Positions 1 through 31,386 of a DNA stretch of 64,000 nt are shown piece by piece (the stretch's first letter is position 1; each line of letters begins with the position of its first letter). The notes below the pieces were generated by a model that saw nothing but the letters and a program-made list of their open reading frames with translations, had not been told where the DNA came from and made no database searches. The stretch spans positions 1,797-65,796 of the forward strand of contig CBFHWB010000001.1 of NCBI GenBank assembly GCA_965659285.1, given 5' to 3'. Made by a program: the position numbers and the translations under genes. Source of the stretch: Planctomycetota bacterium. GTDB lineage: Bacteria > Planctomycetota > UBA8108.

Positions 1-71
1 CGCGAAAACAGGCTTCCGGACTGTCCTGAATCACGCCCCCCGGCCTGTTCGAAGGCGAGGAAGGTAGGCTC

Positions 72-743
72 ATGTATCGAATCGCTCTCCTCTACCTGGC
101 CCTCTGCCTGCCGGCTTCTCTCGGCCTCAAGCCCTTGTCGGCAGAAGATCCAGCGGCAGGAAAGCCCGCAGCCAAGAGCGGGACAAAATGGAAAAAGGAA
201 GACTTCCAGCCGGCGGAGGCCTGCAAAACATGCCACCCGCGGCACTACGAGGAATGGAGAGGCTCCATGCACGCCTACGCCATCACCGACCCTGTTTTTC
301 ACGCGATGCACCGTCTCGCGCAGAAGGAAACCGAAGGCGCCATCGGCGATTTCTGCATCGGCTGTCATGCCCCGGTGGGCACCGGAACCGGAGAGGTTAC
401 GGCCTCAACAAGCTCCCCTGAAGGACTCTCAAAAACAGCCCTGGCTGCGGTCTCCTGCGAGGTCTGCCATCGAAGCGTCCACCTCGAAGATGGCCCCCCC
501 TCCAATGCCCGCTTCAGCATCAAGCCGGGAGCTCCACTCGTCGGCGGGCTCCCCAATCCCCAGCAAACCCCGGCCCATGCATCTGTTACCAACGACAGCC
601 TCAAGAACCCTGATTTCTGCGGCAGCTGTCACAATGTGGTCAATCGCAAGGGAATCAAAATCGAGAAACCCCACGAGGAATTCCTTGCCAGCCCCTACCC
701 CGCCCGCAACACCGGCTGCCTCAACTGTCACATGCAGACCTAG
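72..743 (+). CDS. Secreted pentaheme c-type cytochrome (multiheme cytochrome c)
   Basis: N-terminal signal peptide (MYRIALLYLALCLPASLG). Five CxxCH heme-binding motifs (CKTCH, CIGCH, CEVCH, CGSCH, CLNCH). Ends at TAG 741-743, which is in frame with the next ORF. Confidence 0.8.
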   Translation: MYRIALLYLALCLPASLGLKPLSAEDPAAGKPAAKSGTKWKKEDFQPAEACKTCHPRHYEEWRGSMHAYAITDPVFHAMHRLAQKETEGAIGDFCIGCHAPVGTGTGEVTASTSSPEGLSKTALAAVSCEVCHRSVHLEDGPPSNARFSIKPGAPLVGGLPNPQQTPAHASVTNDSLKNPDFCGSCHNVVNRKGIKIEKPHEEFLASPYPARNTGCLNCHMQT

Positions 744-836
744 ACGGGACGCGCAACCCCGGATGGACCGCTTCGCAACCGTCTCCACCGACATGACTTC
801 ATTGGAGTCGACGTAGCCGTAACCCCCTTCCCACGG

Positions 837-2966
837 ATGGGCTACCAACGCAGGGAGGTTGAAGAGTTTCTGCGAACCGCGGCCAGGCTGAGCGTCTTCG
901 CGCCCGAGGCCGCGGTCGCGGGCGAAAGCTTCAAGCTCAAGGTTGACGTCAAGAACGTCGGAGCCGGACACAACCTGCCCACGGGACCATCGACAGAGCG
1001 GGAGATGTGGCTTGAGGTCATAGCCGTCAACCGGTCGGGAAAGATCCTTTTCGAATCGGGCACCCTGGACAAGCAAGGAGATATCCGAGGTGGACATGGA
1101 AACACCAAGCGGCAGGATCCCCAGCTTGCCCTCTTCACCGACCGCTTTATCGGCGAGAAAGGCGAAACGGTATTCTTCATGTGGCAGGCCCACGCCCTCG
1201 AAGAACATACGATCCCCCCACTGCAGACCCGGTCGGCAAGCTACGAATTCAAGATTCCCGAACAATTCGCGGGCGAGGAACTCAAGCTGAGTGTGCGACT
1301 GCGATTCCGGGCCTTCCCGCCGCACCAGCTCAGGCGGTTGGGAATCGGAAACCTCACCGAGCGCTTCCCCATCTTCGAACTGGGAGAATACAACAGTCCG
1401 CCAATCGTCGTTAAAAAGAGCGCCGGGCAAAAGGGCATCACCAGGGTTCCTGAGGACGTAGCCAGCCTCGTAAAAGCCATCGAAGAAGCGGCCGCCGGAA
1501 CGGTGATTTCGGTCGCCCCGGGCACCTCCGAGCTTGCCGACCCACTGAGATTTCCCGGCAAAGACTTCGTTCTCGAATCCCGGGAGGGTCCCGAGAAGAC
1601 AATCCTCTCCGGGCCGGGCACGAGACCTGCGGCGAGAGAGGCCTCCCTGCTGGTATTCACCGCAGGAGAGACCGCCGCCGCCGTCGTACGGGGTTTCACG
1701 ATCAGGAACGGCCGGGGAACCGTGCTGGATGGACGCCGGGCCGGAGGCGCCCTCCTCTGCATCAAAAGTTCTCCGACCATCGAGGGCAACATCTTCACCG
1801 GCAACGAGGCCGACACGGGAGGTGCGGCCTTCCTCCAGGATTCAGAAGCGAAATTCATCGGCAACCGGTTCACCTCCAATCGAGCCCAGGCCGGCGGGGC
1901 CATCCACATCTCATCCGGCTCCCTTGCTCTGCTCAGCAAAAACTCCTTCACCGACAACCGCGCCCCGCAGGGCGGCGCCGTCCACATTGATTCCGCCGGT
2001 GCTCTCATCCACGGCAACCGCATGACGGCAAACCGGGCCTTCTCGGGAGGGGCGATCCGGCTCATCTCGACAGCCCCGGAGGCTCCCGGCCGCCCCTGGC
2101 TGACGAGCCTCTCAAAAAACCGTCTCTACGGAAATACAGCCCGCTCCGGCGGAGCCATCCTTGCCGAGGGAGCCTGCCGGGTGCTCTCAACGCGCGATCT
2201 GGTCGCCGGCAACATAGGCGGCGGCCTCAGCCTGCTCAACGGCGCGCGGGCGGAGCTTGACCATGCGACCATCGTCGACAACCGCCTTGGCAAGGGAGCC
2301 CTGTCCTCCGAGCCCGGCTCGCCCCTGGCTGTCCGCAACTCCATCCTGTGGGGAAACCGACCCCTCGACCTGGCCGGCGAGTTCTCCTGGTCGCTGGTTG
2401 AGAACGAGGCCTTCGCAGGGGGGACCAACCTTCGCGCGCTGCCCCTGTTTCGCCCTCCCTATTCCGAATGGGAAAGATGCGGAGACCGCGGCGGCCTCTG
2501 CGTTCCGATCCTGCGTCCGGATGCCGAGACCCTCGATCCCGACAACCAGGGCCTCTACCGGAAATACACTCCAGGCCTGCTGGAGCTTTTCACCGATTCC
2601 CCCGCGGCGGACGCAGGCGACCCCGCCAGCCCTCCGGACGAAGATGGCACAAGAACGGATCTCGGATTCCTGCCAAAACTGAAATCACGGCGCCTGTTCA
2701 TTCGCGGCGATGTCGATGGGAATGGGAACATCGACGTAAGCGATGCCAGGGCGATCTTCGCGCTGGTTGATGAAAAAAGCCGGGTTGAGTGCATGGAAAG
2801 CGCGGATGTCGACGGCAACGGGATCATCGACCGCAAAGATGGCATCCAGTTGATGAACTTCGTCATGACGGGCCAGAAGCCTCCCGCCTCCCCCTGGCCT
2901 GATTGCGGGCCCACGCCCCAGCCAGGAGGCTCCCTTGGCTGCTTCAAAGACCGCTGCAAACCATAA
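837..2966 (+). CDS. Beta-sandwich plus right-handed parallel beta-helix repeat protein with a C-terminal dockerin type-I-like pair of Ca-binding repeats. No signal peptide of its own. Probably the C-terminal continuation of the upstream pentaheme cytochrome
   Basis: Repeated G-N-x-F/I-x-x-N motifs typical of NosD/pectate-lyase-like beta-helix repeats (GNIFTGNEADTGG, GNRFTSNRAQAGG, KNSFTDNRAPQGG, GNRMTANRAFSGG). C-terminus has DVDGNGNIDVSD and DVDGNGIIDRKD dockerin loops. Same reading frame as 72-743, with 31 sense codons between the TAG and the first ATG. Confidence 0.7.
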   Translation: MGYQRREVEEFLRTAARLSVFAPEAAVAGESFKLKVDVKNVGAGHNLPTGPSTEREMWLEVIAVNRSGKILFESGTLDKQGDIRGGHGNTKRQDPQLALFTDRFIGEKGETVFFMWQAHALEEHTIPPLQTRSASYEFKIPEQFAGEELKLSVRLRFRAFPPHQLRRLGIGNLTERFPIFELGEYNSPPIVVKKSAGQKGITRVPEDVASLVKAIEEAAAGTVISVAPGTSELADPLRFPGKDFVLESREGPEKTILSGPGTRPAAREASLLVFTAGETAAAVVRGFTIRNGRGTVLDGRRAGGALLCIKSSPTIEGNIFTGNEADTGGAAFLQDSEAKFIGNRFTSNRAQAGGAIHISSGSLALLSKNSFTDNRAPQGGAVHIDSAGALIHGNRMTANRAFSGGAIRLISTAPEAPGRPWLTSLSKNRLYGNTARSGGAILAEGACRVLSTRDLVAGNIGGGLSLLNGARAELDHATIVDNRLGKGALSSEPGSPLAVRNSILWGNRPLDLAGEFSWSLVENEAFAGGTNLRALPLFRPPYSEWERCGDRGGLCVPILRPDAETLDPDNQGLYRKYTPGLLELFTDSPAADAGDPASPPDEDGTRTDLGFLPKLKSRRLFIRGDVDGNGNIDVSDARAIFALVDEKSRVECMESADVDGNGIIDRKDGIQLMNFVMTGQKPPASPWPDCGPTPQPGGSLGCFKDRCKP

Positions 2967-3226
2967 AATACAGGCGCTGCCAGTTTGGAAATAACCGACC
3001 TAAATCCCAGACACTGAATTGTTTGCGTAAAGAACGGCATTTATTCGGAAAAAGACGGGAATTCCTGCACGGTTTTGTCGCTTGCCGTCGTCTTTCCCAG
3101 TAGGTAGTATTAATTCTCATTCTGACGTAAGTTAACTCTTTGCTTTACGGCTGCTTGCGTTTTTTTGAGACCGCCCTGGGGCGGCTGGAATGCGGGAAAT
3201 TGTCGTATCAACGGAGGTTCTCTCTA

Positions 3227-3958
3227 ATGAAAATGTCTCTAAGATTTCTTCTCTGCGCCCTCTTCTGCTGCGGCGCTCTGACCTTCAGCGCAGTTCTCAG
3301 CGCGCAGGATGTCGGTAGTGTCGGCACCAAGGACAATCTCGATCTGCCCGTAGATGCGGTCGGCGAGAACGTCACCGAAGAGGAAGACGCTCCCGAGGTG
3401 GTCATCTTCTACGGCCAGCAACTCGAAGGCGATGGCTTCTTCTACACCGTAGACCGCTCCGGCAGTATGCAGGACCGGGGCGAACTGGCCCGCGCCAAGC
3501 AGGAGATCGCCCGGAACATCCAGGAGTTCTCAGACCGCACCGAGTTTGGCGTCGTCTTCTTTGATTCCGGAGTGCTCAGGTACCCCTCGACCGGTCGCCC
3601 GATCGAAGCCAATGCCGGCATGAAATCGGCCGCGCTCAGTTGGATCGCCGCCGTCGGCGGCGGCAGCGGAAGCTGCTGCCAGGCGGGCATCCTCGCCGCG
3701 CTGCAATTCGCCAACTTCTCCTCTGCCCAGCGCAAGGTCGTCTGCTACGTCGGTGACGGCGGCGGAACCGGCCCCTGCGGCGGAACCGGAGGTGAATCCG
3801 GCTACCTCAACCAGACCCTCCAGCGGGTGGCTCAGCAGAACTACCAGCGCGTCACGATCAATACGATCGGGGTCATGATGAGCGGCCGCGGCATGCAGGA
3901 AACATTCCTCAGAAATATTGCCCGCGGCAATGGCGGCACCTACAAGCGGATCAATTAG
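3227..3958 (+). CDS. Secreted von Willebrand factor type A (VWA) domain protein
   Basis: Signal peptide (MKMSLRFLLCALFCCGALTFSAVLSA). MIDAS-type DxSxS motif (VDRSGSM). GGAGG-like RBS 8 nt upstream of the ATG at 3227. Confidence 0.75.
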   Translation: MKMSLRFLLCALFCCGALTFSAVLSAQDVGSVGTKDNLDLPVDAVGENVTEEEDAPEVVIFYGQQLEGDGFFYTVDRSGSMQDRGELARAKQEIARNIQEFSDRTEFGVVFFDSGVLRYPSTGRPIEANAGMKSAALSWIAAVGGGSGSCCQAGILAALQFANFSSAQRKVVCYVGDGGGTGPCGGTGGESGYLNQTLQRVAQQNYQRVTINTIGVMMSGRGMQETFLRNIARGNGGTYKRIN

Positions 3959-3982
3959 AACGCTTGAAGATCTTGAAATTTC

Positions 3983-4016
3983 AACGGGAACCCGCTTAGC
4001 GGGTTCCCGTTTTTTC
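3983..4016 (+). terminator. Rho-independent terminator after the VWA gene
   Basis: 13-bp perfect stem AACGGGAACCCGC / GCGGGTTCCCGTT with a TTA loop, followed by TTTTTT. Confidence 0.7.
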
Positions 4017-4050
4017 ATGCCCCAGGAGGACTGCCCGGCCGGACAGGATC

Positions 4051-5079
4051 TCAGGCGGAGCAGGAGAGATCATCTCCCGCCTCCGGATGCGATCGGGGCT
4101 GCAACGGGGCGAGCACCAGGAGCAGCCCGACCGCCAGCAATAGAGAATAGCGCTCTAAATCAGGGAGCACGGAAATCCATGGCCAGGACAGCCAGGACAG
4201 CGCCACGGAAAGCCCGCAGGCCGACAGCGCGAACCTTCGCAGTCCCCCAGAGCAACTGTGACGTCCCGACTCGTAGCTGAGCATACAGAGGGGCAGCAGA
4301 AGAGTCGCCGAGTTGAGCCCATCGGAGGGATCCGCCAGCAGCGCCACGAAGCAGAGGCCTCCGACCTCCCTGGCCTGCAGACCCTCGGATGGACCGGAGG
4401 ACAGCCTTCTCGCCGCCCAGAGAACCACCCCGCCCAGGAGGGCTGCAAGGCCGACAAAGACGACCCAGCCGGCTTCCGCACGAGTCTCTCCCAACAGGGC
4501 AAAGACCTGCTGACGCAGGGTCCAGCCGCCAGGGGCTGGAACACTCACAAGCTCCCTCTGCCCGATGTAGAAGGCTCCGGCAAGCAAAACGAATCCCACA
4601 GCCAGGTTGAAGCCTTTGCCCTGGCGCCAGCGGAGCGAGAAGCGCGAAATCCAGAGCCACAGGGGAAACACAATCAACTGCAGCTGCCAGGAGGCCGCGA
4701 GGGCAAAGATGACCGCTGAGAGGCCGGCCTGCCCCCTGCGATCCAGCAACAACGCTGCGCTCACAGCCAGCAGGGAAAGGCATTCGAGACCGGGAATCGG
4801 GGCCGAAAAATCAGCCAGCACAACTGGAAAAACCACCAGGGCGCCAAGGAGGCGCCCCTCGGCTGACACTGGGAGACCCACCACGCGGTCCGCCGCTCCA
4901 AGGAACCATACCAGGCTTCCCAGGCCAGCCAGGACCAGCAGGAGACGCCAGGAACCGAAGATTCCCCCCTCGCAGAAGGCGCATCCATCGGGTCCAACCC
5001 GGCCCGCGAGGATCAACAGGGAGACCGCGAGAAGAATGAGAAGGAGCGTATAGAAGAAAACGACCCGGGAGCTTTGCAT
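4051..5079 (-). CDS. Polytopic inner-membrane protein of unknown function, last gene of the oxidase cluster. Possibly a Caa3_CtaG-like oxidase assembly factor
   Basis: About 9-10 predicted hydrophobic helices. Sits immediately after the DUF420 gene. Probable start is the internal ATG (MQSSRVVFFYT). No diagnostic motif recognised. Confidence 0.4.
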   Translation of the reverse strand: MQSSRVVFFYTLLLILLAVSLLILAGRVGPDGCAFCEGGIFGSWRLLLVLAGLGSLVWFLGAADRVVGLPVSAEGRLLGALVVFPVVLADFSAPIPGLECLSLLAVSAALLLDRRGQAGLSAVIFALAASWQLQLIVFPLWLWISRFSLRWRQGKGFNLAVGFVLLAGAFYIGQRELVSVPAPGGWTLRQQVFALLGETRAEAGWVVFVGLAALLGGVVLWAARRLSSGPSEGLQAREVGGLCFVALLADPSDGLNSATLLLPLCMLSYESGRHSCSGGLRRFALSACGLSVALSWLSWPWISVLPDLERYSLLLAVGLLLVLAPLQPRSHPEAGDDLSCSA

Positions 5080-5084
5080 GAGCT

Positions 5085-5492
5085 TCAGTACAACATGTTG
5101 TAGACGATAACGCCCGTAACCGAGACGTACATCCAGATGGGAAAGGTCATCCTCCCCCACCAGCGATGCGTCTCCCAACGCTGCTTCCAGGCCAGGTAGA
5201 CCGTCCTCAGAACCATGGGCACAACCAACGCGGCAAGAATGATGTGGCTGATGAGAATGAGGAAATAGATCGTTCGAAAAAACCCTTCTCCCTCGTAGGG
5301 CTTGTGCCCGGCCAGGTAATGATAGGTCAGGTAACAGCCGAGGAAGATGGTCGAAACGAAAAAGGCCGCGATCATCAACCGGGCGTGAGCTGTCTTATGC
5401 CCGCGGCGTATGCAGACATACCCTGCGAGAAGAAGGGTTCCGCTGAGAGCGTTCAGGCTGGCATTGACGAATGGGAGGTCGTTTACTTCCAT
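5085..5492 (-). CDS. DUF420 (CtaM/YozB-like) small membrane protein associated with heme-copper oxidases
   Basis: About 135 aa with four hydrophobic helices (MEVNDLPFVNASLNALSGTLLLAGYVCIRRG...). Conserved position after SCO1 in cta clusters. The ORF-track N-terminal extension overlaps SCO1 and is unlikely to be real. Confidence 0.7.
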   Translation of the reverse strand: MEVNDLPFVNASLNALSGTLLLAGYVCIRRGHKTAHARLMIAAFFVSTIFLGCYLTYHYLAGHKPYEGEGFFRTIYFLILISHIILAALVVPMVLRTVYLAWKQRWETHRWWGRMTFPIWMYVSVTGVIVYNMLY

Positions 5493-5496
5493 CGCT

Positions 5497-6162
5497 TCAC
5501 TCCTGCTGGTTTTCTTTGATGAGAATCCGGGCCGCATCGAGAAGTTTCTCGAGATCACCGGGGACCGAGTTCGGACGGTAATAGCCCCGGATGATCCCCT
5601 TCGCATCAACCAGGGCAAACCGATCGCTATGCGGAACGCCGGACTCGGCATCGGCTTCCTGGCTGCCACCCGCGATCATCCTGAAACCCTGCTCGCAGAG
5701 CCGGACAATCTCCCCGCGGCCGCCGCGCAGAAAACTCCAGCAGCTGGAGTCGATGCCCTGCTGGCTGGAATATTGAGCCAGCTGTAGCGGGGTGTCTCTT
5801 CCGGGGTCGAGGGAAAAAGAAACGAGGCGTAATTTGCCGGCAAGATCGCCTTCATTGCGTATGGTTTTCTGGATTTTCAACAGCTCGGCAGCCATCCCTG
5901 GACAGGCGTTGCGGCAGTTGGTGAACATGAAGGTCCCGACCCAGACCTTCCCCCTGAGAGATTTTCGGCTGACCTTCGCGCCCTCCTGGTCATCCAACTC
6001 GAAGGCGGGTACCTCTCCATGACGAGCCAATACCCGGGGGCGCTCCCAGGCGACCGCATAAGCGACCACCGCAAGGATGCCAACAGCCAGCAGAGACCAG
6101 CTGAGCCAGCCGAGAACGCCCTCTGTGCCCTTTTCGGGCTTCTCCATGGTATCTGCGTGCAT
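5497..6162 (-). CDS. SCO1/SenC copper chaperone for CuA assembly
   Basis: Membrane anchor followed by a thioredoxin-like domain with a CxxxC motif (FTNCRNACP) and a downstream conserved His (VPHSDRFALVD). Confidence 0.85.
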   Translation of the reverse strand: MHADTMEKPEKGTEGVLGWLSWSLLAVGILAVVAYAVAWERPRVLARHGEVPAFELDDQEGAKVSRKSLRGKVWVGTFMFTNCRNACPGMAAELLKIQKTIRNEGDLAGKLRLVSFSLDPGRDTPLQLAQYSSQQGIDSSCWSFLRGGRGEIVRLCEQGFRMIAGGSQEADAESGVPHSDRFALVDAKGIIRGYYRPNSVPGDLEKLLDAARILIKENQQE

Positions 6163-6189
6163 TCGCCGCTCCGTCGCTTAGAAGCTTTC

Positions 6190-6783
6190 TTAAAGAATGT
6201 AGAGGATACCGAAGAAAAACACCCATACCAGCACAACCATCAGCCAGTAATAGAGAACGAGATCGACCCCGATTCTCCTGTGCTCATGATATTTTCCACG
6301 GATCGCCTGGATAATGACATAGCTCAGCAGGAGCACTCCGCCGACCACGTGCAGGCCGTGCAGGCCGGCCATGGAATAAAAAACAGTGCCGAAGATGTTC
6401 TGTGCCGGCAGTTCCTGCGCGATCAACCGGGAAAACTCGAGTAACTGTATCCCGGCAAACACCGCTCCGGAAACGAGCGTCAGGCAGAGCCAGGAAACCA
6501 GACCGATCGGATCCTCCCTGCGAATGGCGCGAGAGGCGAGGAGAATGAAAAAACCACTGAGAACGAGAAGTCCCAAATTGCCGAGAGGGAGTCCCATGCC
6601 CTGCTCTGAAAAGCCCTCCGGTTTCCAGCTCTTCGCGCCAAGACGAAGGACGATATACATTCCCACCAGCGCGCCAAAGAACATGATCTCCGCCACGATA
6701 AAGAGGTTGATGGCGAACCTGGCGTTTCCAGACTCATCCGTCGAGCCCGGCGCTCTCCTTGACTCAACCGACTCGCCGGCCAT
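6190..6783 (-). CDS. coxC: Cytochrome c oxidase subunit III
   Basis: Hydrophobic 5-helix protein resembling CoxC/CtaE. Flanked by ctaB and SCO1. Confidence 0.8.
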   Translation of the reverse strand: MAGESVESRRAPGSTDESGNARFAINLFIVAEIMFFGALVGMYIVLRLGAKSWKPEGFSEQGMGLPLGNLGLLVLSGFFILLASRAIRREDPIGLVSWLCLTLVSGAVFAGIQLLEFSRLIAQELPAQNIFGTVFYSMAGLHGLHVVGGVLLLSYVIIQAIRGKYHEHRRIGVDLVLYYWLMVVLVWVFFFGILYIL

Positions 6784-10665: not shown

Positions 10666-11676
10666 CTATTCGGCTTCCTTCTGTTCCTGGTAATAATGTA
10701 CGGGCTCGGGGAACTTCTCCGGAACCGCTGTCTTCCAGTCGTATCCGAGTTCCTTTGCCAGGTCCTCTTCACTGAGAACGAGGAAAGGCGCGTGCATGTT
10801 GGAGTGTCCCTCGCCGCAGAGCTCGGCGCAGACGATCTCGTACTTCTTACCTTCCTTGGCTGTCCCCTCCTTGATTTTGAACCAGATCTTACCGGGGTAG
10901 TAAGGAACCAGGTCCTGCTTCAACCGCAGGTGCGGCGAGAAAAAGCTGTGAAGCACCGGGTGGGTATAGATCTCGGTGTTGGCGTCGTATTTACCCAGGG
11001 AGTTCAACTCGATGAGTATGTTCACATTTTCCGGGACAACAAGCTTTGGCAGAACCTTGTCCTTGGCCAGATCGTCGAGGCCGACGGCATTGGTCGGAGA
11101 CTTGAAAGAATGCCGCTGATCCTCGAACTTCCCATCCTTGCCGGGATAGTTGAACCACCAGGCGAACTGTTCTCCGTAGACCCTGACAACAAAGGTTCCG
11201 GGCTGAACGACACCATCCTTCTCGGGATAGCCGGTCTTGATTGTCAGCCAGCTGCTGTCTCCCACCAGTTGTACAACACCGATGAAAACGAGGACTACGA
11301 CCGTGGCCAGCGTCCAGGTCACCTCGAGCTTGTTGTTGCCGTGGGTGTAGTGGGCCTTTTTGCGCCCTTCACGATTCCTGTAGCGAAAGAGGAACCAGAG
11401 CATCAGACCCTCGACGACGACAAAGGCGATCCCGGTGATCCAGAAGATCAGCACGAACAGGTCGTCCACCCCTTCGCCGTAGGTTGAAATGGCATCGGGC
11501 ATCCAGAACAGCCCGGGCTTCTCCGCCTCGTGGCCGGCAGCGGAAGCCGCCGCCGCGGCCGGCGCTTCGGCGCTCTTCTCCTGGGTCCAGGCTGGAGCGG
11601 CCAGCAACATTCCAACTACAGCCATAGCCAGCAAGGAGGTCGATCTTTTAAACCCCTGTAATCTTGTCAGAATCAT
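10666..11676 (-). CDS. ctaC: Cytochrome c oxidase subunit II (CuA subunit, aa3-type, no fused cytochrome c)
   Basis: CuA motif CAELCGEGHSNMH. Signal peptide plus two N-terminal helices. Ends with TAG. The track start at 11688 is a TTG; the probable start is ATG 11674-11676 (MILTRLQG) with an AGGAAG RBS. Confidence 0.9.
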   Translation of the reverse strand: MILTRLQGFKRSTSLLAMAVVGMLLAAPAWTQEKSAEAPAAAAASAAGHEAEKPGLFWMPDAISTYGEGVDDLFVLIFWITGIAFVVVEGLMLWFLFRYRNREGRKKAHYTHGNNKLEVTWTLATVVVLVFIGVVQLVGDSSWLTIKTGYPEKDGVVQPGTFVVRVYGEQFAWWFNYPGKDGKFEDQRHSFKSPTNAVGLDDLAKDKVLPKLVVPENVNILIELNSLGKYDANTEIYTHPVLHSFFSPHLRLKQDLVPYYPGKIWFKIKEGTAKEGKKYEIVCAELCGEGHSNMHAPFLVLSEEDLAKELGYDWKTAVPEKFPEPVHYYQEQKEAE

Positions 11677-14237: not shown

Positions 14238-17200
14238 CTAATTGCCGCCTCCTGCCTCTTCCTGGGACTCCTCACGGGGAGCGGTCGCCATCTTCTCGTC
14301 GTTCATATGGCGCAGGTACTGCAGGAGAGCGTTTACATCCGCGAGATCTTTAGCGTCAATTTCCGAAGCCGGGTTCCCGGTATACTTCTTCCTCTCCTGG
14401 AAATAGTTCGGCATCTTGGTCCCAGGCATGAAGTCAGGCGGGAAATAGAGCCAGTCCCGTGTCCACTGCGCTCGCAGCCGGCCGGCGGCCGCGTTGAGAT
14501 CCGGACCCCAGGAGCTCTTATCCCAGGGCTTTCCGGCTGCCCAGGCAGATGCCTTGCCGCCAAGTTCGCCACCAGCGGTCTGGACGGCATCCAGGGTGGC
14601 GAACCCCCCCCGCAGGAGGATCTTGCCATCGGAATCCTTCCAGACCAGGAAGTGGCTGTCACCCGGAGCGCTCAGCGGAACCTCCGCGGGAGCAACCGTC
14701 CCGGCTCCCTGGGCGAGGATCGGCAAGGTCGGTAATTCTGCGCCGCGAGGATGGCACTGGCTGCATTGCTTGCCCTTGACCTCAGCCGTACCCTTCCCAC
14801 ACAGCAGTTGCCCCTTGAGAGCCTGTTCTTTTTCGAACCTGTCCTCAGCGAAGAGCTCCTCACCATACGGAACCTCACTGACAGCCTTGAACCACTGGAC
14901 AATCAGGCGGGCCTCAGCCTGCGTAAGATTGAAGGACGGCATTCGGACCTTCAGCCAGGGCCGAATAGGACGCACGTCCTGCAGGAAGTGGAAGAACCAG
15001 TCACTCTTGACGCGCTCTCCCTGGCGCAACAGCGGCGGCGGCGCCTTGAACCTGTCGGTCAACTCTGTTCCAAAGTAGAAACGCACTCCACCCTCGCCAT
15101 AGCCCTTCACCGCGAGTTTTCGCTCGCTTACAGGACTCTCGGAAAGAACCCCGCCAAGAGCCGAGTAGTATTGCGTCGCAAGCCCCTCGAGTTCATCCTT
15201 CCTCACCCCCAGCCCGTCCGGCAGGGAATCGAGGTCTATGTCATAAGGGGTCTCCAGCATAGCGACAAGGAATTGCCCGAGCGCGCTCGATTCATCCTCA
15301 TAGGACTTGCGCATCCGTGAGATCAACCCCGCAGGATCTGCCAGGCGCTTACGCACGAAATCATAGATTCCCCGGTTAGCGAGCGTATCGGCAGGCTCTT
15401 CCTCGTTGTACATCGAATCAATGACCCGGGCTACATCCTGAACAAAGCCCGGAAGAGGATAGAAATGCCTGCGTGCGACATCGACCACCGACATGGGATC
15501 CTCGTTCGGAGTAAAGACCTGCGGCAGAGTTGCATCGGTATTCGCATCACCGGAGCTGAACTGCCCGACCTGTTGACCGAGCGGGAAGCCGGCAGGAAGC
15601 TCGATCCCGAGATTCGACCCTTGCGGACCGGCCGGCCGCGCGGCTAACCGATAGCTCTTGGCGAGCCATGTCTCCGCCTGCATGACATTGCTCCGGCCGG
15701 ACTCATCTCCAAGCGCGTTGGGATTTGGAAGGTCATCAACCGACACATAGCTGGTGGTCGCTCCGAGGCGATGACAGCCTGAACAATTGAGCTTCTGAAC
15801 CAGGCGGCTGCCACCCTCGAGGATTTTCTCCCTCTCCGAAAGATGTTTCTTCCTGCCGGGATCGACCGGGTCAGCCACCAGGCTGATGACATAGGCGACA
15901 ACCGCCTCGACCTGCTCCGGCTTGTCGTGGAACGGAAACAGCGGCATCTTCAGAAGCTCGTCGGCTCCCTTGTGGGCTAATTGCTTCGTCACCTTGTAAT
16001 CGTAGACCGGCTCTCCTGAGCTGGTCCTTCCAACAGTCACCCTGCGAGGCAGAACATCAAATCTCCGGGTGTCGCTGAGCTTGGCCTTGGCCCACTCGTG
16101 ACGCTGATGGGGGATCGCCTCGGATCCATCCTCCTGGTGGCCCCACTGCCCGAAATCCAGGCGGTCAGAGCCCTTGTCCCCCCACTTGTTGAGCTCCGCT
16201 CCAATGGGCTGGGCGCCATCGAAATAGGCGACCCTGTCGGAAGACGGCACTCCTGGATCGGGGTCCTCGTCCCTGATTCCGTTGTGGCAGCCGAAGCAGC
16301 CATAGCGGCGAACCAGGCGATGCCCTACCAGGTTGAGCTTCTCCGAGGTCGACATCGGCTTGCTGGCGTCACCGCCCTTCAACAGGGTAGCCGCCCTGGA
16401 TGTGCCATGCACCGCGCCCAGATAATAGGTCGCTATATCATCAAGAATCTTCTTTTTCGCCGGGTCGCTTTCGATTTCGGCGGCATTGGTCGTGACCAGC
16501 CCGCTCTCCCACCCTTCGTCCCGATCCTTCTTCTGGCTCTCACCAAGCGTAGCAGGGGAAGCGGATGGATGGGCCGCGAGGTCGACATCGTTATAATCAA
16601 GCGTCAGGAGATAGCTGACCATGTCGGCGACCTTCTGTTCCCCGGCGGGATCCTGGCCGGGAGCAAGCCGGAAACGAGGCATGATCGTCTCCGGATCATG
16701 CGCCTGGGGATTGAGAATCCAGCTTGAAAGCCAGTTGACCGCCTTCTTGCGTCCGAGTTCAGTCGCCAGATCGAATTTGCGAGCCAGCGGACTCAGGTCC
16801 GGCCCAAAGGTATTGTGAATCCAGCGATTGTAGACCGCATCCGCCAGTTGGCCGACGCTCTCCAGCGCGCTCTCTTCGATCTCGAGGCTCTCTTCGAGCG
16901 CCATCGATTCCTCGATCGCTCTCTTGCTCTTGCTGTAGAGTTCCTCGAGTTCGGAGCCGACATCCAGTCCCTTGAGCCAACCATAAAGATCCGAAAGTTT
17001 TGTCCCGGATTCCCGATAGGCCGCGGCAAGCAGGGGCTGCCCTTCAGCCGACTGCGCAGCCTTCTGTTCCAATGCGGCGAGAACAGCCGCCAGAGCGGGG
17101 AGAGGCTCATCATATTCACCCTCGGATTCGACCTTGATGCTGTGACACCCCATACAGCCAAGCGTCTTGACGAGTTCCCGGCCGCGAACGGGGTCTCCAG

Positions 17201-19325
17201 CCGGCGCCGCTGCGGCGGCCGGGGAGCCAACGCTGGTATTGAAAAGGTAGGTCGCAAGCCCCAACACCTCGACGCTGTTCCGCAGGTTGAAATCCACCTC
17301 TTCACTACCGCCCGATTCGTCATCGGCTGAGCCGAGAGGGCGAAGCATCTTGCCATTGGAATTAGTCAGGTCAAAGAAACGCGGCATCTTTGACGATTCC
17401 CGGAAATGCACCGGATCACGAATCCAACGCGTCAGGAAGCCCATGGAAACCTTATCTCCCAGATGCTTGAGATTGGGACCCACCTTGTTGAGCTTCCAGA
17501 CCCGATCATCCGAAGCCCCGGCGGCAACCTCGAAACCTTCGATCGTATGGCAGCCGAAGCAGCCATAGGTCCGAACCAGCTTCTTGCCCAGGTTGAGCCG
17601 CTCGGCTCCCTCAATTTCCCATTGGTCATTGTGACACTTGGTGCAGCTCGAACTGGTAAAACCGGTCGGGAGCATCGGATGCTCCTCGTAATGCTTCAGA
17701 TGCCAGTGGTACTTATCCTCCCACTCTGCCCTCTGCTCTTCACCATCCGGAGTGTGCGCGACTATGGTGAACTCGATCGCATGGCCATCTCCGTAATGGC
17801 AGGTGGTGCAACCGGTGTCCTGGTAGGTGTGAGGGCTGGCCGCCGAAAGAAACAGGTCAAGACGGGGGTGGCTGGCATAAACCGAACCCCACTTTTCATC
17901 CTGGTACCCAACGAAGCGGGGATCCGGATCGTCGATGTTGATGTGGCAGGTCTTACATCGATGCACGCGGTCGACATCCATGAAGTTGAGCGGTTCCTTG
18001 AGCCCGGGAGTCACCACCTTATCGATCTTGTAGCTCGGAGCCATGAAATCAAGAAGCGGAGCGTTACGAACCGCGTTCCTCATGGACGAATCGATCAACT
18101 GGTATTGCTTGAGGGCGCTGTTGACCGCGAGCAGGCTATTCTTCAAGCCCGTCTTCAGAACGGAATAATCGGTGGTGCCGCCGGCCACCGACGTCTCCTC
18201 CTTCAACGCCGCGTCGTAAGCAGTCTCTGCTGCCTTCGCCTCGTTCCCGGTCTTCTCCATCTTGAAGAGCTTATCGTTGAGAACCTTGACGGAGGTTTTA
18301 TTGAACTCTACGGAAAGCTCCCTGACCTTCGCGGCCGCTGACTCTGTAGGGCCATCAGCCAGCACATGTTTCTTACTTTCCTCAAAGTTGAACTTGGCGG
18401 CCTGGAAATCACCGCGATAGGCGCGCAGGGCGCGGTCAGCCTCGCTGGCCGCGAAGGCCGCGTTGTTTTTCTCCCGAAGCTTTTCTCTCAATTCGGAATT
18501 CTCGGCAACCTCTGCCTCGATCAGAACCTCCAATTTCTGGACATGGTCGACCAGCCTCAGATAATTCACATCTACCCCGGCTGCCTTTTTCGGCAGCTCG
18601 CGCTTAACCTTCGTCCCCGTGAGCTTGTCCAGAACGAGAGAGAATCCCTGGGCCAGGCTTTCAAGCTTTTCAAGCTCTCCTTCCCTGGCATTTTTCAGCG
18701 CCTCCTCGGACTCCTCGGCCTGCACATCCCTCCAATGGGCCTGGATATGCTTCCACTGGCGATCGTAATCCTGCCAGAAAACCGCCAGGGTGATCACCAG
18801 CAGCGCGGCGCTCGAGATTGCGAAGGCGACATTCAGGGCTGACACGCGATAGAGGGTGGTCTCGCTATCGGGTTCGGTAAAGATACTCTGGGAGAGCTCC
18901 CGGAAGCCTTCTCCCTCGACCAGCGAATCGACGGTCGTTACGGACTCCTTGAGAGGATCTTCCTCTGGCAACTCAGGCAATTCGGGGCCGGTGGCCTCCT
19001 CAGCCGGAGCCTCTGCGGGAGCTTCCTTGCTGGCCGTAACGACCTCGGCCGGAGCCTCTGCCTCGGCCGGAGCCTCTGCGGGCGCCTCTGACGCCGCCAC
19101 CTCCGGCGCCGGCGCAGCGGCGGCGCCCGAGCCAAGGTAGCCGCGGGTTGGCGACCAGTACTGGTCGCCTCCGCCCCCGGCGGCAGGAGCGGGAGCCGCT
19201 GCAGCCGGAGTCTCCTGGGCGGGAGGATCCGCGGCTCCAGCATCAACCGGAGTAGAAGCCGGCTGGGCTCCACTGTCGTCCAGGTAACCTCTTGTAGGAC
19301 ACCAGGGTCCTCTGTCATTCGGCAT
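14238..19325 (-). CDS. Giant (1695 aa) membrane-anchored octaheme c-type cytochrome of the bc-complex/oxidase locus
   Basis: Eight CxxCH motifs (CKTCH, CTTCH, CTKCH, CFGCH, CMGCH, CFGCH, CSGCH, CSQCH). N-terminal Pro/Ala/Glu-rich low-complexity region with a duplicated W(C/S)PTRGYL motif. One hydrophobic helix (VSALNVAFAISSAALLVITLAVFW). About 350 aa of charged coiled-coil-like sequence. Ends with TAG. Confidence 0.85.
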   Translation of the reverse strand: MPNDRGPWCPTRGYLDDSGAQPASTPVDAGAADPPAQETPAAAAPAPAAGGGGDQYWSPTRGYLGSGAAAAPAPEVAASEAPAEAPAEAEAPAEVVTASKEAPAEAPAEEATGPELPELPEEDPLKESVTTVDSLVEGEGFRELSQSIFTEPDSETTLYRVSALNVAFAISSAALLVITLAVFWQDYDRQWKHIQAHWRDVQAEESEEALKNAREGELEKLESLAQGFSLVLDKLTGTKVKRELPKKAAGVDVNYLRLVDHVQKLEVLIEAEVAENSELREKLREKNNAAFAASEADRALRAYRGDFQAAKFNFEESKKHVLADGPTESAAAKVRELSVEFNKTSVKVLNDKLFKMEKTGNEAKAAETAYDAALKEETSVAGGTTDYSVLKTGLKNSLLAVNSALKQYQLIDSSMRNAVRNAPLLDFMAPSYKIDKVVTPGLKEPLNFMDVDRVHRCKTCHINIDDPDPRFVGYQDEKWGSVYASHPRLDLFLSAASPHTYQDTGCTTCHYGDGHAIEFTIVAHTPDGEEQRAEWEDKYHWHLKHYEEHPMLPTGFTSSSCTKCHNDQWEIEGAERLNLGKKLVRTYGCFGCHTIEGFEVAAGASDDRVWKLNKVGPNLKHLGDKVSMGFLTRWIRDPVHFRESSKMPRFFDLTNSNGKMLRPLGSADDESGGSEEVDFNLRNSVEVLGLATYLFNTSVGSPAAAAAPAGDPVRGRELVKTLGCMGCHSIKVESEGEYDEPLPALAAVLAALEQKAAQSAEGQPLLAAAYRESGTKLSDLYGWLKGLDVGSELEELYSKSKRAIEESMALEESLEIEESALESVGQLADAVYNRWIHNTFGPDLSPLARKFDLATELGRKKAVNWLSSWILNPQAHDPETIMPRFRLAPGQDPAGEQKVADMVSYLLTLDYNDVDLAAHPSASPATLGESQKKDRDEGWESGLVTTNAAEIESDPAKKKILDDIATYYLGAVHGTSRAATLLKGGDASKPMSTSEKLNLVGHRLVRRYGCFGCHNGIRDEDPDPGVPSSDRVAYFDGAQPIGAELNKWGDKGSDRLDFGQWGHQEDGSEAIPHQRHEWAKAKLSDTRRFDVLPRRVTVGRTSSGEPVYDYKVTKQLAHKGADELLKMPLFPFHDKPEQVEAVVAYVISLVADPVDPGRKKHLSEREKILEGGSRLVQKLNCSGCHRLGATTSYVSVDDLPNPNALGDESGRSNVMQAETWLAKSYRLAARPAGPQGSNLGIELPAGFPLGQQVGQFSSGDANTDATLPQVFTPNEDPMSVVDVARRHFYPLPGFVQDVARVIDSMYNEEEPADTLANRGIYDFVRKRLADPAGLISRMRKSYEDESSALGQFLVAMLETPYDIDLDSLPDGLGVRKDELEGLATQYYSALGGVLSESPVSERKLAVKGYGEGGVRFYFGTELTDRFKAPPPLLRQGERVKSDWFFHFLQDVRPIRPWLKVRMPSFNLTQAEARLIVQWFKAVSEVPYGEELFAEDRFEKEQALKGQLLCGKGTAEVKGKQCSQCHPRGAELPTLPILAQGAGTVAPAEVPLSAPGDSHFLVWKDSDGKILLRGGFATLDAVQTAGGELGGKASAWAAGKPWDKSSWGPDLNAAAGRLRAQWTRDWLYFPPDFMPGTKMPNYFQERKKYTGNPASEIDAKDLADVNALLQYLRHMNDEKMATAPREESQEEAGGGN
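18938..19140 (-). repeat. Coding low-complexity tandem repeat (Ala/Pro/Glu-rich, APAEAPAEAEAPAE) inside the octaheme cytochrome gene
   Basis: Reiterated DNA units such as CGGCCGGAGCCTCTGC. The repeat is protein-coding. Confidence 0.6.
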
Positions 19326-19348: not shown

Positions 19349-20455
19349 TCAAATGTTAAAAAAGTATTCGGGAATCGCGACGATGTATTTCAGGTTGACC
19401 GTCCAGCGAAGAACCATCTTCAGGGGCAGAGCTGCCATGCAGAGCAGGAAAAAGACCATCGTCTGGTAGCGTATAAAGCCCAGGTCCCTGTACATCTTGC
19501 GGAACACCAGGTTAGCCAATAGCGGCGGCAGGACCGCGAAGTAGGCGATGACTGTCAGGAAGCCCGGCAGCTCACGCAGAAGGATGTTGGACGGCAGAGC
19601 CCTTCCAAGCCACTCGAGATAAACATACTCGGCCAGGTTCACATTGTTGAGGGATTCGACCTTGTGGGGGTCCCAATAGGCATAGGGTCCAAAGAAATTC
19701 CAATTGGGTCCTCGCAGGAAAGTTCCAAGGATGATCAGGGTCACCCAGAGAACGATAAAGCCAAACAGGAAGGTCGAGATAGCGAAGCGGCGCTCCTTAA
19801 AAGTGTAGTAGCCGTTGCCCTTCGGATTCATGTCAATATAGGGAATCGCCATCAGGCCATTGATGATGAAGGTCGGAAAGACAACCCCGGCCAACCAGGG
19901 ATCGTAATAAACCAGCATCTCCTGCAAGCCCAGGAAGTACCAGGGCGCCTTGGATGGGTTGGGCGTCTTGACCAGGCTCGCCGGCTCCTCCAGGGGAGCC
20001 TTCAGATAGTAGGCCCAGACCAGCAGGAGTACGGTACAGAGAATCATCGCGAGAAACTCGGTGTAGACAAGGTCAGGCCAGCAATAAACCCGGCGGCTGG
20101 CCTCGCGATGCTCAAAAGTCGGCAATCCCTTGTCGATCAGACGGTCATTGATGACCATTTTTCTGAAAGCGACCCACAGCAGAAAAGCCAGAGAGAAGAA
20201 CAGGATCGTGATCGGCACGTTATCCGGTTTACCGACGATGAGCTTGAAATTCTCATCTGTGAGGCTCCAGAAATAAAAGACGATTGCGAAAGCGAAGAAA
20301 CCGCCTATGAACCACCCCCGGGTCCAGAAAGACCTGAACTGGATCATGGCCCAGAACCCGACCACGGAGAGGACGAAATACATCGTCGGCTCGAGCAGGC
20401 CATCGATGAAGTTCTTGATGAACTCCGGCAGGTGTGGAACTAACAACGCCAACAT
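19349..20455 (-). CDS. Cytochrome b C-terminal (subunit-IV-like) membrane subunit of a bc-type complex, extended version
   Basis: PEWYFL-type motif (PNPSKAPWYFLGLQEML). Multiple helices. Immediately follows the cytochrome b6-like gene. Confidence 0.8.
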   Translation of the reverse strand: MLALLVPHLPEFIKNFIDGLLEPTMYFVLSVVGFWAMIQFRSFWTRGWFIGGFFAFAIVFYFWSLTDENFKLIVGKPDNVPITILFFSLAFLLWVAFRKMVINDRLIDKGLPTFEHREASRRVYCWPDLVYTEFLAMILCTVLLLVWAYYLKAPLEEPASLVKTPNPSKAPWYFLGLQEMLVYYDPWLAGVVFPTFIINGLMAIPYIDMNPKGNGYYTFKERRFAISTFLFGFIVLWVTLIILGTFLRGPNWNFFGPYAYWDPHKVESLNNVNLAEYVYLEWLGRALPSNILLRELPGFLTVIAYFAVLPPLLANLVFRKMYRDLGFIRYQTMVFFLLCMAALPLKMVLRWTVNLKYIVAIPEYFFNI

Positions 20456-20481: not shown

Positions 20482-21255
20482 CTACATCGGGCCGGAAATG
20501 CCGCCATCCTTGCGGACCCGCCAGAAATGCACCGCTATCAACAGCCCGGCTCCAAGCGGAACCGCGATGCAATGAAGGACATAAAAACGCAGCAGGGTGG
20601 CAGCTCCGACCGTCTTGCTGCCAAGCAGGCCAAACCGAACATCACTTCCGGCGGTTACCAGTGAAACATCGCCAAGCTGGATAAAGGCTGCGCCGGGACC
20701 TTCGTGTCCCATGATCGGCGTCGCTCGCGCCATGTTGGTTCCAACCGTGATCGCCCAGATCGCCAGTTGATCCCACGGCAAGAGATAGCCTGTAAAGCTC
20801 AGCAGCAGGGTCAGCACCAGCAGGATCACTCCGACATTCCAGTTAAACTCACGCGGAGGCTTGTAGGAACCCGTAAGGAAGACCCGCAGCATATGCAGCC
20901 AGACGGTGATGACCATGAGGTGAGCGCCCCACCTGTGCAACTCACGCATGATACCGATGGGAACATGATCCCTTAGCGCCTTGATATCGTTGTAGGCGTA
21001 TTCCACCACGGGCCTGTAGTAGAACATCAGCAATACACCGGTGATCGTCTCGACCAGGAAAAGGAAGAAGGTCAACCCTCCCATGCACCAGGTAAAGCTC
21101 ATTCGAACCCCTGATTTACGCACCTTGATCGGGTGCAGGTGCAGGAAGACATTCGACAGCACCGCCAGGGCCTGGTCTCTCGGGTTGTCAGGATATTTAT
21201 GCCGGAAGATCGACTTCCAGATCTGGCTATCCGTGATGAATTTCATGAGGCTCAT
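20482..21255 (-). CDS. Cytochrome b6-like (cytochrome b N-terminal, four-His bis-heme) subunit
   Basis: Heme-ligand His pairs HRWGAHLMV...[11 protein letters not shown] and [11 protein letters not shown]...[10 protein letters not shown]. Probable start is the internal ATG ([13 protein letters not shown]); the track start is 21324. Confidence 0.85.
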
Positions 21256-21349
21256 AACGCGCCCCTCCAATCCACCCGGTCTGAGGAAAAGCGGGTGAAC
21301 CTGCAGAGGCTGTCGCCAACACAAGATCTGGTTGAACAGGTGTCCCTGG

Positions 21350-30369: not shown

Positions 30370-31386
30370 CTAACACACCCCCGGCCCGCGCCGACTCGAC
30401 AGCGACAGTACGACCGGGTACTCCTCACCATCCTCATAGATCGCCGTCTCTTCCCCCTCGACCGCAACCCGCCCATCCCAGAGCGACCGGGTGACCTCTA
30501 CCGGCGCCGTCCGGCAGCCGCCGATCAGGGTGATCGTCAGGTCATCGATACGAGAGGTGGCTCCCGGCTGCTGGACCTGCCCGAAGGAAGCGCCGAAGAG
30601 AACCTCGACGTTGGTCGCGTCATCCCGGGTCTGCCTGTTGTGATTCAGGCCATTGGTATCGACCACCTGGAGTTGGGGCTCCTCGGGAGGATCATCTCCC
30701 TCCTCCCAGAGCTTCATGCTGATCTGCACCGGCCCTCCATCGTCATTTCCCTGGGCGGAGACCTCGACCCAATACCATTCGCCCTGGATGATCGGAAAGC
30801 CCGGATCCGCCCTGGCATAACCTACAGCGCCGTTCGGCCATTCAAGATGAGGAACCGCCTGGTGACAGCCGGTAAACTCGGCGATCGCCAGGGTGCCGTC
30901 AAAGAACTCTCCATCAACTCCTTCGGGGTAGATGACACAGGCGTAGCCTCTCTCCAGCGAGGCATCGAGCTCCGCATTGGGCCCATCAAAAACCCCCACC
31001 CTTCCCCGCATGTAGATCAGCATCTCGCTGATGGTCTCGAGATTCACGAGGGCCCTCAAGCGGTAGTCCTTCGATCCCTCGGGAAAGATCTCAGCGACCG
31101 TATTCGGATAGAGACTGGCAAGCGCGATCCCTGAGACGGCGTGGTTGGTCATCAACAGGCTGCCATCATTGATCTCGAGACCGCCGACCGGATACAGATC
31201 CCCGCAAAGATCAACAACGCCCGGATGGAAGAAATCCTCCAGTTCCTCCGGCTCCTCGAATTCATAGACCAGCAGATCCTCTTCCTCCTGCTTGCCCTGG
31301 GCCTGCAGAAGAATTGGAGAAGCAAAAAACAAGGCGAAGAGCGCCACCCACAAGCCACAAAGAAGATTCCCGGCTTTTAACATCAA
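30370..31386 (-). CDS. N-terminal portion (with signal peptide) of the same secreted dockerin protein, ending at an in-frame TAG
   Basis: Signal peptide MMLKAGNLLCGLWVALFALFFASPILLQA. Stop TAG at 30370-30372. The 35 downstream codons are sense and protein-like. Confidence 0.6.
   Translation of the reverse strand: MMLKAGNLLCGLWVALFALFFASPILLQAQGKQEEEDLLVYEFEEPEELEDFFHPGVVDLCGDLYPVGGLEINDGSLLMTNHAVSGIALASLYPNTVAEIFPEGSKDYRLRALVNLETISEMLIYMRGRVGVFDGPNAELDASLERGYACVIYPEGVDGEFFDGTLAIAEFTGCHQAVPHLEWPNGAVGYARADPGFPIIQGEWYWVEVSAQGNDDGGPVQISMKLWEEGDDPPEEPQLQVVDTNGLNHNRQTRDDATNVEVLFGASFGQVQQPGATSRIDDLTITLIGGCRTAPVEVTRSLWDGRVAVEGEETAIYEDGEEYPVVLSLSSRRGPGVC

Follow-up and report, generated by a model that had tools for sequence, protein, structure and literature searches.

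A secreted pentaheme cytochrome with beta-helix and dockerin modules in marine Planctomycetota, very probably cut by a private nonsense codon in one contig

Results

A single gene interrupted by an in-frame TAG

We analysed a stretch of 64,000 nucleotides (nt) from a Planctomycetota bacterium (contig CBFHWB010000001.1, positions 1,797 to 65,796), hereafter called the window. Near its start lie two open reading frames (ORFs), the first with five CxxCH motifs and the second with beta-helix and dockerin features. An initial annotation had described the two ORFs as sharing one frame, with only a single TAG at 741-743 and 31 sense codons between them, and these coordinates were confirmed. The evidence presented here makes it very probable that positions 72-2966 hold one gene for a secreted protein of 964 amino acids (aa), composed of a pentaheme cytochrome, a beta-helix and a dockerin, and that this gene is cut by a private T-to-G substitution, with no programmed readthrough. 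The features of the gene are listed below.

57 to 64, forward strand: Shine-Dalgarno-like motif GAGGAAGG, 7 nt 5' of the ATG at 72; putative function
72 to 743, forward strand: ORF1, 223 aa, with a hydrophobic signal-like N-terminus and five CxxCH, ending at the TAG
72 to 143, forward strand: probable Sec signal peptide, MYRIALLYLALCLPASLGLKPLSA followed by ED, judged from sequence features; putative cleavage site
72 to 740, forward strand: N-terminal pentaheme cytochrome part (Pfam Cytochrome_C554, 3e-10)
741 to 743, forward strand: nonsense codon TAG in frame, private to this sequence, where Tyr is otherwise conserved (Tyr224)
744 to 836, forward strand: the 31 'spacer' codons, TGRATPDGPLRNRLHRHDFIGVDVAVTPFPR, a continuation of the cytochrome domain (alignments A1 and A2)
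837 to 2966, forward strand: ORF2, 709 aa, with ATG at 837, in the same frame as ORF1, stop TAA
882 to 1418, forward strand: Ig-like beta-sandwich 'stem' (beta strands at model residues 47-225), with GHNLPTG at 966-986
1431 to 2513, forward strand: right-handed parallel beta-helix with Pmp-like GGA(I/L/V)...N repeats (Pfam, structural model)
2706 to 2864, forward strand: dockerin with two Ca-loop/helix repeats, beginning DVDGNGNIDVSD and DVDGNGIIDRKD (Pfam Dockerin_1, Foldseek)
2865 to 2966, forward strand: Cys-rich tail P-x-P-x-C-G-x-x-P...G-C-F...C, conserved in alignment A2, then TAA

The five CxxCH of ORF1 are located at aa 51-55, 95-99, 129-133, 183-187 and 216-220 (222-236, 354-368, 456-470, 618-632 and 717-731 of the window). 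ORF2 has no signal peptide and carries a beta-sandwich, a NosD-like beta-helix and a two-loop dockerin, as described in the initial annotation. Inspection of the sequence in front of its ATG at 837 revealed no Shine-Dalgarno-like motif, and a promoter scan of positions 1-3300 no promoter-like site; terminator-like matches within the same 3300 nt occurred on the minus strand only and were fewer than the shuffle expectation. Judged from the alignments, the ATG at 837 is not a natural start. The 31 codons between the ORFs had been proposed to supply further His residues, and the conserved H241 indeed lies there, together with the invariant R235/R240, G245 and D247 (alignments A1 and A2). Because the alignments are ungapped at the TAG and the apparent spacer contains invariant positions, the haem part and the beta-sandwich form one ancestral domain pair.

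To find homologues, we used the fused N-terminal 449 aa with an X at the stop as query. This search returned 207 homologues; the best 120 of these 207 are mostly about 430-560 aa long (range 320-714), and the best matches span 87-99% of the query. For the stand-alone homologues, which are about 445 aa long, alignment A1 runs ungapped through the TAG, and most of its sequences have Tyr in the TAG column (CHMPxYxG). The word-indexed search missed all close orthologues (best identity 41-43%), probably since its list of candidates was swamped by CxxCH words; they were recovered by a scan of genome contigs, an exhaustive search of cluster representatives and an exact-sequence look-up. Scanning one genome per species, we found eight loci in marine Planctomycetota metagenome-assembled genomes (MAGs) with protein identities of 69-95%. 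In all eight the gene is uninterrupted, with CLNCHMQTYTGRATPDG across the critical position, and the complete copies encode 964 or 962 aa. The codon in the TAG column is TAT in loci L001-L003 and TAC in L004-L008, and in L001, the nearest relative, TAT in place of TAG is the only difference from the window within the surrounding 63 nt. Five further contigs, one of them the contig of L003, came from a pattern scan of JGI metagenomes, and all have TAT or TAC. Together these are 12 related marine loci (eight from genomes and four further ones from metagenomes), with 69-95% identity, Tyr in the column and an uninterrupted gene.

According to the exact-sequence look-up, the 223-aa and 709-aa products of the window each occur on a single NCBI contig. 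Both fall into a cluster of 105 members at 90% identity, whose representative has 964 aa. Tyr224 is present in each of the nine full-length 964-aa cluster members that we read, the closest of which differs at 23 residues, and it is found in 12 distant family members as well (alignment A2). In all these relatives the cytochrome and beta-helix halves lie in a single ORF. With an ungapped alignment across the TAG and an uninterrupted ORF in relatives, the two ORFs of the window represent one protein-coding unit. The proposed single secreted cytochrome-dockerin protein is thus real as the 962-964-aa ORF of the relatives, and not as a readthrough product here.

To place the change in time, we compared the window with L001, to which it is 94.6% identical over 8963 nt with zero gaps. 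Private synonymous and non-synonymous substitutions number 28:17 in the window lineage (the stop counted), 24:15 in L001, 76:38 in L002 and 57:44 in L003. The window lineage displays neither relaxed selection nor indels. Since constraint is not relaxed in this lineage, the TAG is, on the evidence of these substitution counts, a very recent change or not real.

Other interrupted genes in the window

Two further genes of the window contain an in-frame stop. One of them was detected with our own hidden Markov model (HMM) of the C-terminal dockerin and Cys-rich tail, which we searched against the window.

31386 to 29167, reverse strand: second dockerin-tailed protein, with the module at its end (own HMM, E 3e-19)
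63289 to 59432, reverse strand: third secreted protein, with FG-GAP repeats, UnbV_ASPIC and TPR, interrupted by TGA at 61481-61483

The second gene consists of a signal peptide and 338 codons, the TAG at 30370-30372 and then 400 codons. Its relatives are intact with 736-738 aa (best identity 93%), and at the stop they have Glu or Ser, the latter encoded by TCA in L025. This protein matched neither Pfam nor NCBIfam families. In the third case, an ORF with FG-GAP repeats and an ORF with FG-GAP, UnbV_ASPIC and TPR lie in the same frame with a single TGA between them (NANKDDL, stop, SFFWRQVV). An ASPIC homologue of 576 aa from locus L013 aligns across this TGA, and the gene is probably nonsense-interrupted too. 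With two more in-frame stops in the window, the TAG is no special property of the cytochrome gene.

Alternative explanations of the TAG

A base-call or consensus error in one assembly, which would leave the organism with an intact gene of 964 aa, has in our estimate somewhat less than an even chance. Such an error would fit a TAG allele that is found on only one contig of the 105-member cluster, a single-base difference in an otherwise identical context of 63 nt, and a gene without any decay. Against it stand the zero indel errors relative to L001 over 8963 nt and the places where stops occur: all three in-frame stops affect proteins that are secreted and presumably dispensable, and the housekeeping genes of the window, including those for respiration and tryptophan biosynthesis, contain none. 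Such a distribution fits real mutations that have passed through selection better than errors striking at random, an argument made post hoc. If the base is real, the strain would carry a very young pseudogene: the 223-aa fragment would be without the distal H241 and H300 and without the stem domain, and the remainder after the TAG would have neither a signal peptide nor a ribosome-binding site. With a wrong base call, on the other hand, the gene would be intact.

Programmed readthrough or recoding of the TAG, through a suppressor tRNA, pyrrolysine or codon context, would produce a regulated long isoform, and we regard this as very improbable. It is true that the frame is perfectly kept across the TAG, that the window holds a second TAG-interrupted dockerin-tailed gene, and that the relative ExtKL/MccSep is a genuine case of recoding, with an in-frame TGA for selenocysteine (PMC13510729, PMC5877670). 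However, the TGA selenocysteine of ExtK/ExtL is situated at another position than the TAG here (PMC13510729, PMC5877670), and the TAG column is Tyr (TAT or TAC) in every relative and never a stop. The three stop sites lack a common pattern, as the column of the second gene is Ser or Glu and the third stop is TGA. Moreover, TAG ends ordinary genes of the window, namely the gene for a lipoprotein similar to formylglycine-generating enzyme (FGE) directly upstream (65-67), COX2 (10666-10668) and a cytochrome b fusion (25490-25492). A scan of the window revealed no tRNA or tmRNA gene. Neither a stop conserved in relatives nor decoding machinery in the window was found. The break sits inside the cytochrome fold, 5' of two conserved distal His and not at a domain border, so that a short isoform would lose two haem ligands. 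Selenocysteine and pyrrolysine were rejected for three reasons: the codon is TAG and not TGA, Tyr occupies the site in relatives, and TAG serves as a regular terminator in the window. The readthrough product proposed in the initial annotation left no sign in these data, the column being Tyr and the difference TAT versus TAG within 63 nt. A functional split, in which a 709-aa protein would be translated on its own and associate with the 223-aa cytochrome, is hardly credible, and slightly less so than recoding. Two-gene annotations of this fold exist for ExtK/ExtL and for the sPHC of cable bacteria (PMC11976967), but the apparent split of ExtK/ExtL is a selenocysteine codon and not a true split. 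The second part lacks a signal peptide, a Shine-Dalgarno-like motif and a promoter-like site, and without export it could not meet the haem domain. A start at ATG 837 would in addition drop the invariant H241, and the split is seen on one contig only. A private T-to-G change in a single gene is therefore the reading that we follow below.

The pentaheme cytochrome domain

The initial annotation had suggested a Pfam scan, in which Cytochrome_C554, Beta_helix, NosD and Dockerin_1 were all matched. All five CxxCH are invariant in alignments A1 and A2. A profile search against the PDB returned the pentaheme cytochrome c552 of T. tepidum (5ze8, 1e-24, in three stretches) and MccSep (9wt9, 1e-11). 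The NCBIfam model ExtKL (NF040886) matched residues 49-329 with 1e-12, but with 47.2 bits versus an equivalog cut-off of 250. For the part encoded by 744-2963 we computed an AlphaFold model from a 16-sequence alignment (predicted local distance difference test, pLDDT, 81.8), in which the beta-sandwich is followed by a beta-helix spanning about 360 residues and by a dockerin with two helices. The top Foldseek match of the stem is again 5ze8 (E 1.4e-6, 183 columns, root mean square deviation (rmsd) 3.3). Within the stem, His300 of GHNLPTG is invariant, and MccSep has 'GHSIPDG-U325' at the aligned position of the GHxxP(T/S/D)G motif.

A 'PHC family', defined by a pentaheme domain plus an Ig-like domain, has been described that groups ExtKL/MccSep and c552 (PMC11976967). 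Measured against this fold, whose members are ExtKL/MccSep, T. tepidum c552, Gsu2801 and the sPHC/lPHC of cable bacteria, the protein has five CxxCH, a contiguous C-terminal Ig-like sandwich and significant similarity to the solved members 5ze8 and 9wt9. The cytochrome and beta-sandwich together have the pentaheme fold of ExtKL/MccSep and T. tepidum c552.

With MccSep/ExtKL of Geobacter sulfurreducens (PDB 9wt8/9wt9; PMC13510729), the protein shares five CxxCH haems in an alpha-helical cap, the C-terminal Ig-like beta-sandwich and the G-H-x-x-P-x-G motif in the stem. It differs in that MccSep has neither beta-helix nor dockerin and is encoded in a rhodanese/porin cluster, whereas an FGE-like lipoprotein gene is the neighbour here. 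The active sites differ as well. Four haems of MccSep are bis-His ligated; its haem 2 is ligated by His and Cys239, with Sec325 nearby (PMC13510729). Four non-motif His, H67, H169, H241 and H300, are invariant here (alignment A2). The Cys239 column corresponds to I197/E198, with a nearly invariant Glu, while c552 has Cys; the alignment is uncertain by about one residue at this point, so that E198 lies at or beside the Cys239 column. The Sec325 column, directly after GHNLPTG, is Pro306 or variable, and no family member has Cys or selenocysteine in either column. Because the Cys239 and Sec325 columns differ, the protein is not a polysulfide reductase of the MccSep type, a candidate that we rejected for its score below the equivalog cut-off as well as for the absent Cys and selenocysteine. 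At haem 2, the distal site is probably different and may be open. T. tepidum c552 is the best solved relative both by profile and by stem fold and has the same two-domain pentaheme plan. It is, in contrast, a stand-alone protein of 435 aa with Cys in place of Glu198, and the structural alignment has an identity of about 17%.

Beta-helix, dockerin and Cys-rich tail

Pfam searches with ORF2 matched Beta_helix (2e-12), NosD (3e-6), Chlam_PMP (1.5e-6) and Dockerin_1 (3.8e-5). The pLDDT of the beta-helix model is mostly above 90, and its Foldseek neighbours are P22 tailspike, PL6 alginate lyases, LnbX and RbmB. Dockerin_1 (PF00404) scored 24.2 bits versus a gathering cut-off of 22.9, and the loops DVDGNGNIDVSD and DVDGNGIIDRKD show what we take to be the canonical Asp/Asn pattern. 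Foldseek superimposed the module on the ScaB dockerin 4uyp_B over 60 columns with an rmsd of 1.1 A, a TM score (target) of 0.73 and 42% identity. The module thus has two loop-helix repeats above threshold and, comparing a predicted model with a solved structure, the fold of a type I dockerin. As in type I cellulosomal dockerins such as that of ScaB, duplicated 12-residue Ca-binding loops are each followed by a helix. Unlike these, the module carries one more conserved Cys, located between the repeats, and is followed by a Cys-rich tail, and its cargo is a redox protein and not a hydrolase. Besides this C907 between the repeats, C945, C957 and C962 are nearly invariant (alignment A2).

An exhaustive phmmer search over 1.84 billion cluster representatives showed how widely this arrangement is distributed. 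The alignment extends over the entire length in at least 12 distant clusters, whose proteins have 905-977 aa and 34-47% identity. Each distant member has about 200-235 N-terminal residues with five CxxCH, Tyr224, the dockerin and the tail P-x-P-x-CG-x-DPT-...-GCF-...-C. Dockerin_1 was matched in nine of 14 full-length family members (best 5e-7), and a search with the C-terminal 268 aa alone revealed only three weak dockerin-only matches. The named members are proteins of Planctomycetota MAGs annotated only as 'right-handed parallel beta-helix repeat-containing protein'. The arrangement is a real one and is shared by a family.

A multihaem cytochrome fused to a beta-helix of the pectin-lyase fold is also known from the type C multihaem cytochromes (MHC-C) of anaerobic methanotrophic (ANME) archaea, whose pectin-lyase-like domain has been proposed to attach to carbohydrates or partner surfaces (PMC9012536). 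Compared by description, these archaeal proteins differ in having many more haems, an N-terminal helix domain, no dockerin and an unrelated cytochrome part.

Conserved neighbours and paired genes

The cytochrome gene is flanked by two further genes that are conserved in relatives.

2 to 67, forward strand: 3' end of an FGE-sulfatase-like lipoprotein gene, AKTGFRTVLNHAPRPVRRRGR, with the stop TAG at 65-67
3227 to 3958, forward strand: secreted vWA-domain protein (weak Pfam VWA_2), a conserved downstream neighbour

The translation of 2-67 corresponds to the C-terminus of a 439-aa protein with an FGE-sulfatase domain in L002 (Pfam 1.2e-38), which has an LGGC lipobox and a PKD-like segment. This gene lies directly upstream of the cytochrome gene in all loci examined, among them L002, L004, L017 and L019; the distance from its end to the cytochrome ATG is 5 nt in L002 and L004. 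L017 shares the synteny of the window, and its gene at the position of the vWA gene is 61% identical. The flanks of L019 are unrelated and its cytochrome fusion is 33% identical; a protein of 1080 aa with an HZS_alpha domain (3158-6400 of that locus, forward strand) is encoded just upstream of its FGE-like and cytochrome-dockerin genes. In the protein P0131 (1412 aa, from a Logan contig of 8948 nt), the FGE-like protein is fused N-terminally to a whole cytochrome-beta-helix-dockerin protein, which provides Rosetta-stone evidence for a functional link between the two genes. The FGE-like protein has the FGE fold (PDB FGE, 2e-22), with an alignment that stops before the Cys region. NCBIfam matches to SenA, GldK/PorK and EgtB were all far below the cut-offs. 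We do not regard it as a true formylglycine-generating enzyme, since it lacks the Cys pair. The FGE-like protein may be an anchor or scaffold, or a redox partner.

The stand-alone PHCs of about 445 aa (L010, L013, L015 and L016) are mostly lipoproteins, with Cys after the signal sequence. Each is encoded by the downstream gene of a tight pair, and the partners are beta-propeller, FG-GAP/ASPIC, FGE-like and DHOR proteins. In L015, the FGE-like gene overlaps the stand-alone PHC gene P0011 by 4 nt, and in L013 ASPIC/FG-GAP and TPR genes flank the PHC gene. This pairing of stand-alone PHC genes with varied secreted partners suggests that the PHC unit is a modular redox partner.

Other genes of the window

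Elsewhere, the window is a dense respiratory island, which also contains COX1/2/3, CtaA, CtaB, SCO1 and DUF420. An ORF of 1694 aa (14238-19325, reverse strand) with matches to Cytochrom_C, FixO and Cytochrome_C7 apparently encodes a very long multi-domain c-type cytochrome; it is located between the cytochrome oxidase genes and the cytochrome b genes. A 956-aa protein (25490-28363, reverse strand) combines cytochrome b, with its N- and C-terminal parts, and a multihaem c region with NapC/NrfB-like matches. A second, split cytochrome b pair is encoded at 20482-21324 and 19349-20455 on the reverse strand. Outside the respiratory genes, a UvrA-like protein of 1885 aa (50535-56195, reverse strand) with UvrA_inter, UvrA_DNA-bind and several ABC ATPase domains has about twice the normal length of UvrA.

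Discussion

In its intact form, the protein would be Sec-exported with 964 aa and would comprise a pentaheme domain with an integral Ig-like sandwich, a Pmp-like beta-helix, a Ca-loop dockerin and a Cys-rich tail. Its gene would be the second of a conserved pair that begins with the FGE-sulfatase-like lipoprotein gene. The five haems could carry electrons over a short route within the envelope or on the cell surface. Judged from the four invariant non-motif His, four of them would be bis-His ligated, whereas haem 2 would have a non-Cys, possibly open, distal site beside the conserved Glu. The beta-helix might act as a rigid spacer or as an arm that binds glycans or surfaces, and the dockerin tail, the FGE-like lipoprotein or both might fix the protein to a partner in the envelope.

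Dockerins outside cellulosomes have precedents. The initial annotation had stated that cohesin-dockerin systems are known for cellulosomes and not for redox proteins, which overstates their restriction, as non-cellulosomal dockerins occur in ANME archaea (PMC9012536) and Planctomycetes (PMC6461901). In ANME archaea, dockerins are found, for example, on substrate-binding and S-layer proteins (PMC9012536), and a role of dockerins in the adhesion of multihaem cytochromes has been the subject of speculation (PMC5244752). In Planctomycetes, cohesin and dockerin are part of a proposed non-cellulosomal peptidase 'planctosome' (PMC6461901). The literature that we searched on dockerins and multiheme proteins, including PMC9012536, PMC5244752 and PMC6199725, contained no multihaem cytochrome that itself carries a dockerin. 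Likewise, searches on dockerins in Planctomycetes and on multiheme proteins and beta-helices in Planctomycetota retrieved no description of the family.

Several points weigh against the picture drawn here. The assembled sequence alone does not separate a real mutation from a consensus error, and low-level natural readthrough of the TAG may occur. The assignment of haem ligands rests on the alignment with MccSep and c552, in which the Cys/Glu column is uncertain by about one residue. A location beyond the periplasm is putative. Among the scanned ORFs of the window, none matched a Pfam cohesin at E<=1e-3. Finally, the C-terminal 55 residues of the FGE-like protein contain no Cys, and the catalytic Cu-binding Cys pair is absent.

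It is conceivable, and in our judgement unlikely, that marine Planctomycetota possess a redox complex of the envelope or surface, in which the enzyme-like pentaheme cytochrome, with a non-Cys and possibly open site at haem 2, sits on its beta-helix arm, is attached by the dockerin/Cys-knot and cooperates with the FGE-fold lipoprotein and maybe other proteins with the same tail. If this were true, it would represent a redox counterpart of the cellulosome or 'planctosome' and, in the oxic ocean, would let the cells exchange electrons with particulate or polymeric substrates.

By itself, the TAG is an ordinary feature, either a private nonsense change or an error. The greater interest lies in a conserved and so far undescribed family from uncultured marine Planctomycetota that joins the pentaheme fold to a beta-helix and a dockerin, encoded beside an FGE-fold lipoprotein. 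Its haem domain goes unnoticed because public annotation names only the beta-helix repeats. The family displays a variant of the MccSep active site, with Glu for Cys and without selenocysteine. If the dockerin docks, no earlier case would be known to us in which cohesin-dockerin binding recruits a multihaem cytochrome, and the family would offer a testable handle on the extracytoplasmic redox chemistry of aerobic pelagic Planctomycetota.

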